A stretch of 64,000 nucleotides of DNA. Origin: Escherichia coli. GTDB lineage: Bacteria; Pseudomonadota; Gammaproteobacteria; Enterobacterales; Enterobacteriaceae. The stretch is from the NCBI RefSeq assembly GCF_003334305.1, contig NZ_QOWS01000008.1; one strand, written 5' to 3'. The notes beneath the pieces are model-generated. The model ran no database searches. It was not told the DNA's origin and was given only the letters and a program-made list of their open reading frames with translations. Every line of letters begins with the position of its first letter. Position 1 is the first letter of the stretch. The translations under genes were made by a program, and so were the position numbers. Positions 16,893-23,423 of the stretch are shown here, piece by piece.

Positions 16893-17010
16893 GATTTCGT
16901 CCTTTTTAAGGTGGTTATTTACACCTTAGCGCAAAGCGGACGTGGTTCCTACTGGAGTGCGCATAACGAACACAAGCACTCCCGTGGATAAATTGAGAAC
17001 GAAAGATCAA

Positions 17011-17103
17011 AAAAAAAGCCAGCACCCGGCTGGCTAAGTAATACTGGAAGCAATGTGAGCAATGTCGTGCTTTCAGGTTCTCCGCGAGGGTCTTCCTGAT
17101 CGC
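17011..17103 (-). ncRNA. ryhB: RyhB iron-starvation small RNA
   Basis: Reverse complement of 17103..17011 reads GCGATCAGGAAGACCCTCGCGGAGAACCTGAAAGCACGACATTGCTCACATTGCTTCCAGTATTACTTAGCCAGCCGGGTGCTGGCTTTTTTTT, the RyhB sequence with its terminator hairpin and U-tract; located between yhhX and yhhY as in K-12. Confidence 0.93.
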
Positions 17104-17949: not shown

Positions 17950-19128
17950 ATGAGTAATATTGTTTACCTGACAGTAACGGGAGAACAACAAGGAAGCATC
18001 TCCGCAGGTTGTGGGACTTCTGAGTCTACAGGTAATCGTTGGCAGAGCGGGCATGAGGATGAAATATTTACATTCTCACTCTTAAATAATATTAATAATA
18101 CGGGGCTTGGTTCACAGTTCCATGGTATAACATTTTGTAAATTAATTGATAAAAGCACTCCATTATTTATTAATTCCATTAACAATAATGAACAATTATT
18201 TATGGGATTTGACTTCTATCGAATAAATAGATTTGGTAGATGGGAAAAGTATTATTATATACAACTAAAAGGCGCTTTTTTATCGGCTATTCATCATCAG
18301 ATCATTCAAAATCAACTGGATACAGAAACAATAACTGTTAGTTATGAATTTATCCTCTGTCAACATCTTATCGCAAATACCGAGTTCAGCTATTTGGCAC
18401 TCCCTGAAAATTATAACCGTTTGTTTTTACCAAATTCAAAAAACCAAACAAATAATCGTTTCAAAACGTTAAACAGCAAAGCTATTGGCAGGCTACTTGC
18501 TGCTGGTGGCGTATACAATGGGAACATTGAAGGATTCAGAGATACTGCGGAAAAACTGGGTGGAGATGCAATAAAAGGCTATGATCAAATACTAAATGAA
18601 AAAACAGCGGGCATAGCGATAGCAACAGCATCTATTCTTTTAACAAAGCGTTCTAATGTTGATACATATACAGAAATAAATAGTTACTTAGGCAAACTTA
18701 GAGGTCAACAAAAACTTCTTGATGGTATAGACATAATAGAAATAATATACATTAAGAGACCTTCAAAAGACTTAGCTAACTTACGAAAGGAGTTTAATAA
18801 AACTGTAAGAAAAAATTTTCTTATCAAACTTGCAAAAACCTCCGAAGCATCTGGAAGATTCAACGCCGAAGACCTTTTAAGAATGAGAAAGGGCAATGTT
18901 CCTCTAAATTATAATGTTCACCATAAACTATCTCTAGATGATGGTGGTACTAATGATTTCGAAAATTTAGTATTAATCGAAAACGAACCATATCATAAAG
19001 TTTTTACTAACATGCAATCACGAATAGCTAAGGGAATATTAGTAGGTGAAAGCAAAATCACTCCCTGGGCCATTCCATCTGGCTCAATTTATCCTCCCAT
19101 GAAAAATATTATGGACCACACAAAATGA
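17950..19128 (+). CDS. yhhZ: Hcp-family protein fused to C-terminal HNH (colicin-DNase-like) nuclease domain; orphan polymorphic toxin
   Basis: 392-aa ORF in AT-rich DNA; N-terminal approx 150 aa Hcp-like; C-terminus NYNVHHKLSLDDGGTNDFENLVLIENEPYHK fits the HH..N..H HNH signature. Confidence 0.85.
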   Translation: MSNIVYLTVTGEQQGSISAGCGTSESTGNRWQSGHEDEIFTFSLLNNINNTGLGSQFHGITFCKLIDKSTPLFINSINNNEQLFMGFDFYRINRFGRWEKYYYIQLKGAFLSAIHHQIIQNQLDTETITVSYEFILCQHLIANTEFSYLALPENYNRLFLPNSKNQTNNRFKTLNSKAIGRLLAAGGVYNGNIEGFRDTAEKLGGDAIKGYDQILNEKTAGIAIATASILLTKRSNVDTYTEINSYLGKLRGQQKLLDGIDIIEIIYIKRPSKDLANLRKEFNKTVRKNFLIKLAKTSEASGRFNAEDLLRMRKGNVPLNYNVHHKLSLDDGGTNDFENLVLIENEPYHKVFTNMQSRIAKGILVGESKITPWAIPSGSIYPPMKNIMDHTK

Positions 19129-19619
19129 TGACTAAAACCCAAATAAATAAATTAATAAAAATGATGAATGATTTAGACTATCCATTTGAAGCACCGCTCA
19201 AGGAATCATTTATTGAAAGTATAATCCAAATAGAATTTAATTCTAATTCAACTAATTGCCTGGAGAAGTTATGTAATGAAGTTAGTATTCTTTTTAAGAA
19301 TCAACCTGATTATCTTACTTTTTTAAGAGCAATGGATGGATTCGAAGTTAATGGATTACGATTATTTAGCCTCTCGATTCCAGAACCTTCAGTTAAAAAC
19401 CTTTTTGCCGTAAATGAATTTTATAGAAATAATGATGATTTCATAAACCCTGATCTACAAGAACGGTTAGTGATCGGGGATGATAGCATTTCAATATTTA
19501 CTTATGACATTAAAAGTAACTTTTTTGAAATTAGAGATAATATTGGCACAGAAAATATATTCAGTTCGTTTAGTGATTTCTCTTCATTCTTAAACGAAAT
19601 CATGGACAGTTGTTCATAA
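19125..19619 (+). CDS. yrhA: putative cognate immunity protein of the Hcp-HNH toxin
   Basis: 164-aa acidic ORF whose ATG overlaps the yhhZ stop (ATGA); same AT-rich composition; position corresponds to yrhA, which in K-12 is disrupted by IS1 (no IS1 here). Confidence 0.6.
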   Translation: MMTKTQINKLIKMMNDLDYPFEAPLKESFIESIIQIEFNSNSTNCLEKLCNEVSILFKNQPDYLTFLRAMDGFEVNGLRLFSLSIPEPSVKNLFAVNEFYRNNDDFINPDLQERLVIGDDSISIFTYDIKSNFFEIRDNIGTENIFSSFSDFSSFLNEIMDSCS

Positions 19620-20390: not shown

Positions 20391-22133
20391 TTAGTACCCC
20401 GCCGTTAAATCATCCACCGAGCGCGGGTCGGATGCGCCGTACAACTCACCGTCCGGCCCAACCATAATGCTTTGTGTACTGCCCATCGCCTCTTTCAGCG
20501 CCACTTTCTGACCTTTTGCTTCCAGCAGCTTGAGCGTATCCGGGCTAAACCCTTTTTCGACACGCAGCTCGTCCGGCAACCACTGATGGTGGAAACGCGG
20601 CGCATTGGTCGCTTCGGCGACGTTCATGCCATAATCGATGCTATTCACCACCATTTGCAGCACTGTAGTGATGATCCGGCTACCGCCTGGGCTACCGGTA
20701 ACCAGCCAGGTTTTACCGTCTTTCACCACAATGGTCGGCGACATCGACGACAGCGGGCGTTTGTTCGGCCCGACGGCGTTGGCATCACCGCCCACCAGCC
20801 CGTAAACGTTCGGTACGCCCGGTTTGGCGGAGAAATCATCCATCTGGTTATTAAGCAGAATACCGCTCTCGCCCGCGACAATGCCCGTACCGAAGGTGGT
20901 GTTCAGCGTATAGGTCACCGCCACCGCGTTACCATCTTTATCCACCACTGAGTAATGGGTAGTTTGATTACTCTCATAAGGCGCAAGCTTGCCGGGGCGA
21001 ATTTCGCTGGATGGCTTCGCTTTATTGATATCAATTTGATCGGCAATAGATTTGGCATAGGCTTTATTGGTCAGCGCCTGCCACGGTACTTTGACAAAAT
21101 CCGGGTCGCCAAGATATTCCGAGCGGTCGGCGTAGGCGTATTTCTCCGCTTCTGCCATGATTTGCATCGCATCGGCGCTGCCAAAGCCGTATTTCTTCAT
21201 ATCGAAGTTTTCCAGAATATTGAGGATTTGTACGATATGGATCCCGCCGGAGGATGGCGGTGGCATGGAGTAAACCTGATACCCGCGATAATCGCCGCTT
21301 ATCGGAGTGCGTTCGACCGCTTTATAGGCTGCTAAATCTTCTTTAGTGATCAAGCCACCGTTTTTCTGCATCTCCTGGGCGATCTGTTCCGCAATCGTGC
21401 CTTTATAGAATTCGTCCGGGCCGTTTTCAGCAATCATCTCCAGGCTCTTTGCCAGGTTCGCCTGCACCAGCGTGTCGCCCTTTTTCAGCGGCTCGCCCTC
21501 TTTCCAGAAGATAGCTTTACTGTTTTCGTGATTCGGCAACACTTCGCTACCGTAGGTTTTGAGATCGTCAGCCAGCGCGTCGTTAACGATAAAACCATCG
21601 CGTGCCAGTTTAAACGCGGGCTGCACGACTTTGTTCAGCGGCATGGTGCCGTATTTATCCAGCGCCAGCGAGAAACCTGCTACCGTACCCGGTGTGCCGG
21701 AAGCCAGATGCGAAGTGAGTGATTTTTTGCTGTCCGGGTTGCCCTGATCATCGAGGAACATATCGCGGGTCGCTTTGGCGGGTGCCATTTCGCGGAAATC
21801 GATAGCCGTGGTATTGCCATTTTTCGAGCGGATTAACATAAAACCACCACCGCCCAGATTCCCTGCCTGCGGATGCGTTACCGCCAGCGCGTAGCCCACC
21901 GCCACGGCGGCATCAACGGCATTCCCGCCCTCCTTGAGAATATCCACCCCCACCTGAGTGGCAGTGGCGTCCACAGACGCTACCATTCCCTGTTTCGCGC
22001 GTACCGGGTGGAAGACATCTTCCTCCACACCATACGAGACGGGCGGCGCAGGAGGCGCGGCGGCGGCGCTAAAACAACTTCCTGAGAGCAGAGCAGCAAT
22101 GGCCACCCGGCGTAAAAACGTCGGTTTTATCAT
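20391..22133 (-). CDS. ggt: gamma-glutamyltranspeptidase
   Basis: Recognised protein starts MIKPTFLRRVAIAALLSGSCFSAAAAPPAPP (signal peptide) at internal ATG 22133 (580 aa); ORF track extends to 22160. Confidence 0.94.
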   Translation of the reverse strand: MIKPTFLRRVAIAALLSGSCFSAAAAPPAPPVSYGVEEDVFHPVRAKQGMVASVDATATQVGVDILKEGGNAVDAAVAVGYALAVTHPQAGNLGGGGFMLIRSKNGNTTAIDFREMAPAKATRDMFLDDQGNPDSKKSLTSHLASGTPGTVAGFSLALDKYGTMPLNKVVQPAFKLARDGFIVNDALADDLKTYGSEVLPNHENSKAIFWKEGEPLKKGDTLVQANLAKSLEMIAENGPDEFYKGTIAEQIAQEMQKNGGLITKEDLAAYKAVERTPISGDYRGYQVYSMPPPSSGGIHIVQILNILENFDMKKYGFGSADAMQIMAEAEKYAYADRSEYLGDPDFVKVPWQALTNKAYAKSIADQIDINKAKPSSEIRPGKLAPYESNQTTHYSVVDKDGNAVAVTYTLNTTFGTGIVAGESGILLNNQMDDFSAKPGVPNVYGLVGGDANAVGPNKRPLSSMSPTIVVKDGKTWLVTGSPGGSRIITTVLQMVVNSIDYGMNVAEATNAPRFHHQWLPDELRVEKGFSPDTLKLLEAKGQKVALKEAMGSTQSIMVGPDGELYGASDPRSVDDLTAGY

Positions 22134-22252
22134 CGTTATTCTCCAGAGATTAAGGGGCAACCCCAGCTAAGCCTGGTATATAACTCTGAATTAATCATCG
22201 TTTTGTCGGGAAGCGAGTAAACTTAAAGGATATCTTCAGAGGAGGATACGCG

Positions 22253-22693
22253 ATGAAACGACTTCTGATTCTTACGGCACTCCTGCCGTTTGTCGGCTTT
22301 GCACAGCCCATTAATACTCTGAACAACCCTAACCAGCCGGGGTATCAGATACCCAGCCAGCAGCGGATGCAAACCCAGATGCAGACTCAGCAAATCCAGC
22401 AAAAAGGGATGCTGAATCAGCAACTGAAAACGCAAACTCAGTTGCAACAGCAGCATTTAGAAAACCAGATAAACAATAATTCTCAGCGGGTGTTGCAGTC
22501 ACAGCCGGGGGAGCGAAATCCCGCCCGGCAGCAAATGCTGCCCAACACCAACGGCGGGATGTTAAACAGCAACCGTAATCCGGATAGTTCGTTGAATCAG
22601 CAGCATATGCTGCCGGAGAGGAGAAACGGCGACATGCTGAATCAGCCCAGCACGCCGCAGCCTGACATTCCGTTGAAAACTATTGGGCCGTAA
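22253..22693 (+). CDS. yhhA: Gln/Asn-rich secreted protein (DUF2756)
   Basis: 146-aa ORF with signal peptide [17 protein letters not shown] followed by Q/N-rich low-complexity sequence. Confidence 0.88.
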
Positions 22694-23423
22694 AGTTCGG
22701 ACCAATCACGTCAATCGCATCGGTACAGATGCAATCCACGCCCCAGCGCAGCAACTCTGCCGCGCGCTGGGGTTTATTGACGGTATAAACCAGAATCCGC
22801 AGTCCGGCGTCTTTCAACTGCATCACTCGCACTTTATCGAGTAACTTATGATTGAGATGAATAGAGACGCAGCCCAGCCGCGCGGTCAGTTCGCGCCAGT
22901 CGTCGCGCCACTCATCAAGCAATAAACCACGCGGCAGTTCCGGTGCCGCCAGCTGTGCAGCTTCTAAAGCATCAATCTCAAACGATGACAGCAGCGGCGG
23001 CGTCATACCGGCCCACAGTTGGCGTGCCGCCAGCGCCACCATTTTGCCCGTTAATGGTCCAGTGCCAGTGGTGGGTTTGATTTCGATATTCGCCATCATC
23101 CCGTGTTCGCGACAGCGTTCCGCCACCTGCGAAAGCAACGGCAGCGGCTCACCTTTAAACGCTTTGCTGTACCAACTGCCCGCATCCACGCGCAGTAAAT
23201 CCTGCCAGTTCAGTTCACCCGCGACGCCCCAGCCGTTGCTGGTGCGTTCGAGATTGTCGTCATGGAGCAGGAAGATCTCGCCATCTTTCGATAACTTCGC
23301 GTCAAATTCGATCATTTTATGACCGTATTTTGCCCCGACGTCGATTGCCGCCAGGGTGTTTTCCGGGGCCAGCTTACCGCCGCCACGATGAGCGACGATG
23401 CGGGGATAAGGCCAGTTACTCAT
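22680..23423 (-). CDS. ugpQ: glycerophosphodiester phosphodiesterase (cytoplasmic)
   Basis: 247-aa [33 protein letters not shown] with GDPD motifs; last gene of ugp operon; 3' end overlaps yhhA 3' end convergently. Confidence 0.94.

Follow-up and report, generated by a model that had tools for sequence, protein, structure and literature searches.

YhhA of Escherichia coli: a Gln/Asn-rich protein with a predicted signal peptide, a Q-rich core of conserved length and links to the RpoS regulon

Glutamine-rich and largely unstructured segments are known from the periplasm of Escherichia coli in FtsN and DamX. In these SPOR-domain proteins the Q-rich segments link a membrane anchor to the peptidoglycan-binding SPOR domain. 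A Q/N-rich composition is also found in the curli proteins CsgA and CsgB and in the yeast prion domains. Curli are secreted and their expression depends on RpoS, and prion domains keep their composition rather than their sequence. SilE and PcoE, from plasmid-borne metal-resistance operons, combine a signal peptide and Met enrichment with disorder and helix-forming potential. Classical bacterial hydrophilins, another disordered group, are cytoplasmic. Closest of all is the DUF2756/YhhA family itself, which is a family without an assigned function.

The yhhA gene described here lies in a stretch of 64,000 nucleotides from an E. coli contig (NZ_QOWS01000008.1, assembly GCF_003334305.1). The whole stretch is referred to as the window, and the features of the locus are collected in Table 1. 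The open reading frame is intact with 146 codons, an ATG start and a TAA stop, and its G+C content is an ordinary 51%. RefSeq labels it yhhA, 'DUF2756 family protein', at identical coordinates. The Pfam model PF10956 matches with E=1.1e-60 over its whole length (positions 1-105 of 105), and the NCBIfam equivalog PRK10350 scores the protein at 265 bits against a cut-off of 136, aligning residues 1-146 with profile positions 1-145. Pfam, NCBIfam, the RefSeq annotation and the position in E. coli genomes all bear out the name YhhA, which had been proposed in an earlier sequence-only reading of the window. The divergent orientation from ggt that was described there is also found, with ggt on the minus strand and a spacer of 119 bp. 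The statement that the function is unknown agrees with the literature, where yhhA of E. coli and Salmonella is met solely in omics tables; a functional study of the gene was not found in the searchable literature. The string 'yhhA' in the literature refers in part to an unrelated Lactococcus gene or to other uses. Both yhhA and its family are already known, as are its listing in the RpoS regulon and its odd composition. What is added here is the architecture of the protein, the constraint on the length of its core, a candidate promoter and the narrow range of the family, and no new kind of system is described.

Table 1. Positions in the window of yhhA, its parts, its upstream signals and its neighbours
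Feature	Position	Strand	Basis or remark
ggt (gamma-glutamyltransferase), divergent neighbour	20391-22133	-	ORF list and annotation
ggt/yhhA divergent spacer, 119 bp	22134-22252	.	Conserved blocks in the alignment of 27 genera
Candidate -10 TAAACT followed by TAA	22218-22226	+	Cross-genus conservation; without a recognisable -35 hexamer
Shine-Dalgarno GGAGGA	22241-22246	+	6 nt upstream of the ATG
yhhA CDS	22253-22693	+	ORF list, RefSeq annotation, Pfam, NCBIfam; dN/dS of about 0.08 backs the frame
Predicted Sec-type signal peptide, residues 1-17	22253-22303	+	Sequence rules and conservation; predicted cleavage before Q18
Mature N-terminal tail, residues 18-33	22304-22351	+	Alignments; low AF2 pLDDT
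Proline-free Q-rich core, residues 34-84	22352-22504	+	Bounded by P34-S35 and Q84-P85-G86
Disordered C-terminal tail, residues 85-146	22505-22690	+	Predicted disorder; repeated motifs; conserved IPLKTIGP end
First C-terminal repeat unit, residues 93-116	22529-22600	+	Missing in E. albertii (codon alignment)
ugpQ (glycerophosphodiester phosphodiesterase), convergent neighbour	22680-23423	-	3' end overlaps yhhA by 14 bp

The Pfam scan of YhhA returned the DUF only, with no enzyme and no metal-binding family, and a profile search of the whole PDB gave chance-level matches only (E of at least 0.4). Some homologues carry the names 'membrane-bound lytic murein transglycosylase' or 'exonuclease VII large subunit', which were set aside because they contradict the DUF-only Pfam result. 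Leu-rich antisense ORFs across yhhA were ruled out by the codon-level selection on the yhhA frame. An exact-sequence look-up showed that the YhhA allele of the window is absent from the protein cluster collection. The convergent transcriptional overlap of yhhA and ugpQ appears in a published survey (PMC12288877).

The YhhA family is phylogenetically very narrow. A word-indexed search of 5.8 billion proteins gave 467 relatives, with DUF2756 present in every one of those listed. When 1.84 billion cluster representatives were searched exhaustively with an HMM, there were 79 matches at E<=0.001, many of them fragments, and relatives turned up in 141 species when each prokaryotic species was represented by a single genome. 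Among 80 loci that were kept and named, essentially all belong to Enterobacteriaceae such as Escherichia, Citrobacter, Enterobacter, Buttiauxella, Franconibacter, Atlantibacter, Cedecea and Leclercia, with the exception of one record labelled Chryseobacterium and a few unclassified metagenome bins. Within E. coli, the 701-bp stretch around yhhA is present in 5425 of 5426 complete genomes and is always chromosomal. The order ggt(-), yhhA(+), ugpQ(-), ugpC(-) is kept in 78 of the 80 species loci, where the identity to the proteins of the window is 52-98% for YhhA and roughly 80-99% for GGT and UgpQ. With yhhA divergent from ggt and convergent with ugpQ, the kept order is no sign of co-transcription and therefore yields no functional clue. 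The distant homologues are short (88-117 amino acids) and consist of the N-terminal module only; their genes adjoin a GDPD gene of the ugpQ type, with or without ggt. The C-terminal tail with its ML repeats is absent from these short forms, which fits the reach of the Pfam model: it covers residues 1-105 of YhhA, from the signal peptide through the N-terminal motif to the Q-rich core.

A signal peptide had been claimed for YhhA, and both sequence rules and conservation across 81 orthologues support this. The N-terminus has two basic residues, an uncharged run of 14 residues, Gly at position -3 and Ala at position -1, so that the n, h and c regions and the -3/-1 positions correspond to those of a signal peptidase I substrate. 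Position -1 is Ala in all 81 orthologues and position -3 is taken without exception by A, G, V, S or C, while position +1 is Q in 80 of the 81 and position +2 is P in every one. Neither a lipobox Cys nor a twin-arginine motif was found in the signal sequence. In surface-protein extracts of STEC, YhhA is among the 15 most abundant proteins and appears beside the periplasmic proteins HdeB, SodC and ZraP (PMC9731836). The sequence and this co-extraction with envelope proteins argue strongly for export.

The candidate promoter of yhhA was identified through cross-genus intergenic alignment only (27 genera). Its -10 block (TAAACTTAA) has TAAACT in 25 of the 27 genera aligned and TACACT in the other two. 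A generic scan of the ggt/yhhA spacer for sigma-70 promoters came up empty, since a -35 match is lacking there. Promoters that depend on sigma-S often have a good -10 followed by TAA and no -35. The putative yhhA promoter would fit the sigma-S/sigma-70 type, and TAAACTTAA without a -35 is compatible with RpoS. Further downstream, GGAGG(A/G) is kept as the ribosome-binding signal in nearly all genera. The spacer also contains the conserved blocks TAAGCCTGGT and AATCATCGT and a G-run/C-run hairpin at 22154-22164.

Published data list yhhA among genes of the RpoS regulon. Genomic SELEX with the RpoS holoenzyme gave a peak in the ggt/yhhA spacer, where the target gene is not assignable from the peak (PMC5493296). 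The gene is among those of the RpoS regulon that are induced after a cold shift (PMC4057180), and it rises with rpoS at the transition to stationary phase (PMC2241611). It is also described in the literature as co-induced with RpoS genes under multiple stresses, under acid and by LolCDE inhibition, and elaB, ycaC, raiA, wrbA, yqjC and yqjD are induced together with it. The protein has been detected by mass spectrometry in E. coli (PMC9927464) and in Salmonella (PMC4265081). The sequence-only reading would have been refuted by a protein that is not expressed, and this is not the case: the mass-spectrometry detections, together with the conserved -10 and Shine-Dalgarno, establish the expression of yhhA.

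A different role is given in a preprint (10.1101/364117), which states that YhhA is a validated type III effector of EPEC. EPEC and EHEC would then inject the protein, and its S/TQ motifs would mimic the substrates of the ATM kinase. Such motifs are expected by chance because YhhA is 22% Q. The protein has a predicted cleavable Sec signal peptide, the gene is present in the 5425 E. coli genomes whatever their pathotype, and it is a syntenic core gene that extends to environmental and commensal genera among the 141 species. A distribution restricted to strains with a type III secretion system, which is one criterion for an effector, is not what is found, and yhhA behaves as an RpoS stress gene. 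The Sec signal, the near-universal presence and the RpoS behaviour speak against an effector function as the general role of yhhA, which is considered extremely unlikely. The analysis thus argues against a claim that is in circulation.

The composition of the protein is unusual. Mature YhhA has 129 amino acids including 29 Q and 18 N, which gives 36.4% Q/N and agrees with the claim that these residues make up more than a third of the mature protein. For the 45 other ORFs of at least 200 amino acids in the window, the mean content of Q and N is 8.0% and the maximum 13.4%. The binomial probability of the excess in YhhA is about 2e-19, thus far beyond chance, and the Q+N fraction among orthologues is 32-44%. 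The richest stretch of 80 residues (residues 21-100) holds 36 Q/N, which is above the prion-like compositional criterion of at least 30 Q/N in 80 residues. Proline makes up 11% and Met 5.4% of the mature protein, which has one Tyr and no Cys, Trp or Phe. With a GRAVY of -1.4 YhhA falls on the disordered side of the charge-hydropathy boundary. Since FtsN and DamX also have Q-rich segments, YhhA is an unusual case of a high Q content in the periplasm but not the only one.

The sequence-only reading described irregular low-complexity repeats, and this can be kept in part. There are eight overlapping QxQ triplets and the protein is rich in Q/N, but drift in the repeats is not seen, because both the positions and the length of the core are conserved (dN/dS 0.01-0.14 over the Q-rich core). 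Tandem Repeats Finder detected no DNA-level array in yhhA, so the repeats are not recent expansions. Conservation was assessed in alignments of 28 and then 81 orthologues, and dN/dS was calculated as medians from codon alignments of yhhA to 30 species. The median for the mature protein is 0.08. Of its parts, residues 34-83 have the lowest value (0.03), followed by the N-terminal tail (0.055) and the C-terminal tail (0.21). These codon alignments indicate that yhhA is under purifying selection. Within Escherichia, synonymous change at first seemed too frequent over the helix (dS near 1), an idea that was dropped after comparison with the flanks; the species representatives named 'E. coli' are 5-10% divergent everywhere, and the helix region of yhhA is at the high end and not an outlier.

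The mature protein is built up by three parts. The N-terminal tail follows the pattern QP-x-N-x-x-NNPN-x-P-x-Y (the NNPN-PGY motif), in which N21, N24, N25, P26 and N27 are invariant. The core opens with the invariant P34 and with S35 (95% conserved), followed by QQR-M-Q-x-Q-M, and residues 35-84 contain 20 Q, 5 N, no proline and few charges among 50 residues. Also invariant in the core are Q37, R38, Q40, M43, Q47, M53, L54, Q56, Q61, Q65, Q67 and Q72. The C-terminal tail has repeat units of the form Q-Q-(H)-M-L-P ... N-G-x-M-L, with L96, P97, N98, G101, M103, L104, M119, L120, G126, M128 and L129 invariant or nearly so and H118 conserved in 88% of the 81 orthologues. The number of ML dipeptides per orthologue is three to six. 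In E. albertii the protein has 122 amino acids and is one unit of 24 residues short.

The length of the core is also conserved. From P34 to the next proline there are 51 residues in 52 of the 81 orthologues and 55 residues in 24 more. In these, as in sequences of Enterobacter and Lelliottia type, P85 has apparently been substituted, so that the distance runs to a proline four residues further on. The distance of 51 recurs in 12 of 18 distant homologues with 33-64% identity. These distances show that the core keeps its length although its composition invites slippage.

Methionine is among the conserved residues, and this is relevant for the possibility that disordered YhhA acts as a Met-rich sponge in the periplasm, where it would bind Cu(I) or Ag(I) or soak up oxidants, much like SilE/PcoE or the Met-rich segments that act as antioxidants. 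In addition to the Met content given above, orthologues have up to 12 such residues, three of them (M43, M53, M119) never vary and two (M103, M128) hardly do, and the protein is predicted to be periplasmic and disordered and is stress-induced. However, there is no HxxM or MxxH in the mature protein, which has two His and one MxxxM, and Pfam does not tie it to metal-binding families. The regulation looks to be of the RpoS type, with no copper- or silver-responsive context near yhhA, and the Met residues stand in fixed ML dipeptides that look more like a contact motif. A sponge of this kind is therefore regarded as rather unlikely.

With the family alignment, AF2 gives a single helix at residues 34-83 with pLDDT 75-84, and the mean pLDDT of the model is 59.5. 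Outside the helix pLDDT is below about 60, and below 50 in the C-terminal tail. No strand is predicted. A helix is what AF2 tends to draw for Q-rich tracts, and the present one is therefore only moderately supported. In the core, the heptad power at 3.5 residues is 1.2 compared with a peak of 26.5 at about 5.05 residues, and the best hydrophobic power at 3.4-3.8 residues is matched by 23% of shuffles. With a hydrophobic spacing of about five residues, the helix is not clearly amphipathic and does not resemble a coiled coil. When three linked copies of the core, an artificial construct, were modelled with AF2, no confident bundle resulted (pLDDT 36, pTM 0.26), so that self-association is left unsupported. 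Both results weaken the notion of a coiled-coil rod.

The structural predictions bear on whether YhhA is a functional amyloid or a prion-like protein, in which the exported Q/N domain would form beta-rich fibres or aggregates in the envelope. The 36 Q/N in 80 residues, the core with few charges and without proline, and secretion as in CsgA are in line with this. AF2 predicts helix and no strand, though, and the Pfam scan gave no curlin-repeat match to YhhA even at E<=10. Proline amounts to 11% overall in the tails, the single Tyr is the only aromatic residue when Phe and Trp are considered with it, and no nucleator or secretion genes like csgB or csgG are found near yhhA. Moreover, selection acts on positions in YhhA and not just on composition, as the dN/dS of 0.01-0.14 indicates. 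For these reasons an amyloid is judged improbable to a high degree.

Length variants of YhhA do occur within E. coli. In public collections there are in-frame deletion alleles of 96-143 amino acids and duplication alleles of 155-163 amino acids, and residues 35-85 take most of the length changes. Direct repeats of 4-9 nt mark several of the deletion junctions, for example CAGCAGCAT for the deletion of 50 residues, and the four insertions examined in the Q-rich core are exact tandem duplications of the reference sequence; some indel junctions were misplaced by a simple script owing to nearby substitutions. Direct repeats at the junctions and exact duplications are the signature of replication slippage. 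Each indel variant is found in 1-7 contigs, and the two large clusters with 146 amino acids hold 220 and 40 distinct sequences. Slippage makes length variants, yet the orthologues of different species agree in how long the core is, and this speaks for selection on length. The suggestion that the number of repeats should be compared for conservation thus has a divided outcome: the length of the core is conserved across species, but rare indels occur and E. albertii lacks a unit.

The natural deletions of up to 50 residues, the tandem duplications and the missing repeat unit in E. albertii could also mean that YhhA is a dispensable filler, a weakly constrained hydrophilic polypeptide of the periplasm that has no specific partner and serves, for example, as a crowding or osmotic agent or as a nitrogen-rich reserve. 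YhhA also diverges faster (60-80% identity) than GGT and UgpQ (80-93%). Retention of the gene would then be owed mostly to where it lies, between ggt and the ugp operon. The dN/dS of yhhA is far below 1, however, several motifs are invariant, the core keeps its length throughout the family, and the indel alleles are each rare. A filler function is accordingly doubtful, but it is given more weight than the amyloid, sponge or effector functions.

The identity, expression and architecture of YhhA are established. As to its role, the balance tips slightly towards a small, Sec-exported envelope protein of stationary phase and stress, encoded in the core genome of Enterobacteriaceae, that belongs to the RpoS regulon and acts as a binding scaffold or protectant. 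The protein has no catalytic-looking residues, no Cys or Trp and almost no aromatic residues, and it most likely binds rather than catalyses; from this we infer the binding or scaffold role. YhhA would be made mainly in stationary phase and under stress via RpoS and exported by Sec, and the best guess is that it serves as a periplasmic scaffold or protectant in the stress phase. The Q-rich helix with its constrained length might act as a rod or an interaction surface, and the NG-x-ML repeats and the N-terminal NNPN-PGY might be short linear contact sites for partners in the envelope.

A more specific form of this role is speculative and has little probability. The proline-bounded Q segment of about 50 residues could be a length-calibrated periplasmic rod, or else a redox-sensitive, self-associating domain rich in Met and Gln, that organises or protects the envelope in stationary phase. 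As a helix the rod would be about 75 A long, which is comparable to Lpp. If the rod or the domain were real, YhhA would be an extracytoplasmic bacterial counterpart of the Q-rich, Met-rich proteins that form condensates in eukaryotes. Irrespective of this, YhhA is a 'y-gene' product of E. coli that is a conserved and abundant envelope protein of the stress phase, and it is a well-defined target for studying how the periplasm is remodelled in stationary-phase Enterobacteriaceae.

Compared with the described systems, YhhA differs from FtsN and DamX in that it is free-standing, with no anchor and no globular domain, and in that its Q-rich part is conserved in sequence and length. With SilE and PcoE it shares a similar size, the signal peptide, disorder with helix-forming potential and the Met enrichment, but it lacks HxxM and MxxH and has two His, and its gene is chromosomal, core and linked to RpoS instead of belonging to a plasmid-borne metal-resistance operon. 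The Q/N-rich composition is shared with CsgA/CsgB and the yeast prion domains, from which YhhA is set apart by the lack of curlin repeats and predicted beta structure, by few aromatic residues and by selection at the level of positions. The GRAVY, the predicted disorder and the induction in stationary phase and under stress resemble hydrophilins and LEA-like proteins, but the Gly content of 5.4% is under the 6% threshold for hydrophilins and YhhA is predicted to be exported. The heptad periodicity of canonical coiled coils like Lpp is not found in the core. No difference was seen between yhhA of the window and the DUF2756/YhhA family, to which it belongs as a full-length equivalog match in the same genomic position as in annotated E. 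coli genomes.

Natural yhhA alleles of E. coli differ in length through rearrangements within the Q-rich core of the encoded protein (residues 34-84, window 22352-22504). In-frame deletions remove 3-50 residues and tandem duplications add 10-17 residues in this part, with short direct repeats of 4-9 nt at several of the deletion junctions. The alleles were drawn from the homologous proteins P0001-P0035, P0051 and P0092.

A substitution in the C-terminal tail is known from C41(DE3), a strain for overexpression of membrane proteins, where codon 97 is changed from Pro to Leu (PMC4632034). The change lies at nucleotide 290 of the coding sequence (window about 22542) and replaces the nearly invariant proline of the QMLP motif in YhhA. 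It was considered incidental by the authors who described it (PMC4632034).

Read on the minus strand, the 3' part of yhhA also contains a terminator-like hairpin, with a stem of 13 bp followed by CGTTTCTCCT. Because this hairpin adjoins the ugpQ stop codon, the last codons of yhhA may have a second role as terminator of the ugp operon. The part of yhhA that contains the hairpin shows little synonymous divergence within Escherichia.

At the other end of the gene, the stem of the hairpin in the ggt/yhhA spacer is preserved in most genera compared, with a variable loop, and the two conserved blocks next to this hairpin could be parts of the 5' leader or promoter of ggt, or a site for a shared regulator. 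Only two of 80 species loci have yhhA without a flanking ggt: in Escherichia sp. MOD1-EC7003 (L004) ugpQ is a remnant of 52 residues, and in Intestinirhabdus alba (L080) both ggt and ugpQ are absent beside yhhA. Local rearrangements seem likely to account for these exceptions.

Features in and around yhhA and elsewhere in the window
Feature	Position	Strand	Location or basis
RyhB sRNA gene	17010-17074	-	Rfam RF00057, 83 bits
Hcp-type ORF, 392 aa	17950-19128	+	N-terminal T6SS Hcp (TssD) domain
YrhA-family ORF	19125-19619	+	next after Hcp ORF, 4-bp overlap
G-run/C-run hairpin GGGGCAACCCC	22154-22164		ggt/yhhA spacer; cross-genus conservation
Conserved blocks TAAGCCTGGT and AATCATCGT	within 22168-22202		ggt/yhhA spacer, upstream of candidate yhhA -10
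Terminator-like hairpin	22629-22658	-	3' part of yhhA, directly downstream of ugpQ stop codon

When the entire 64,000-nt window was scanned, RyhB was the sole Rfam match to reach the gathering score. The Hcp-type protein, labelled 'Hcp1 family type VI secretion system effector' in RefSeq, has a C-terminal extension that carries the HNH-like motif …NYNVHHKLSLDDGG…. This gene and its YrhA-family neighbour together look like an orphan Hcp-toxin/immunity pair, and are followed directly downstream by two small ORFs, yrhD and yrhB.
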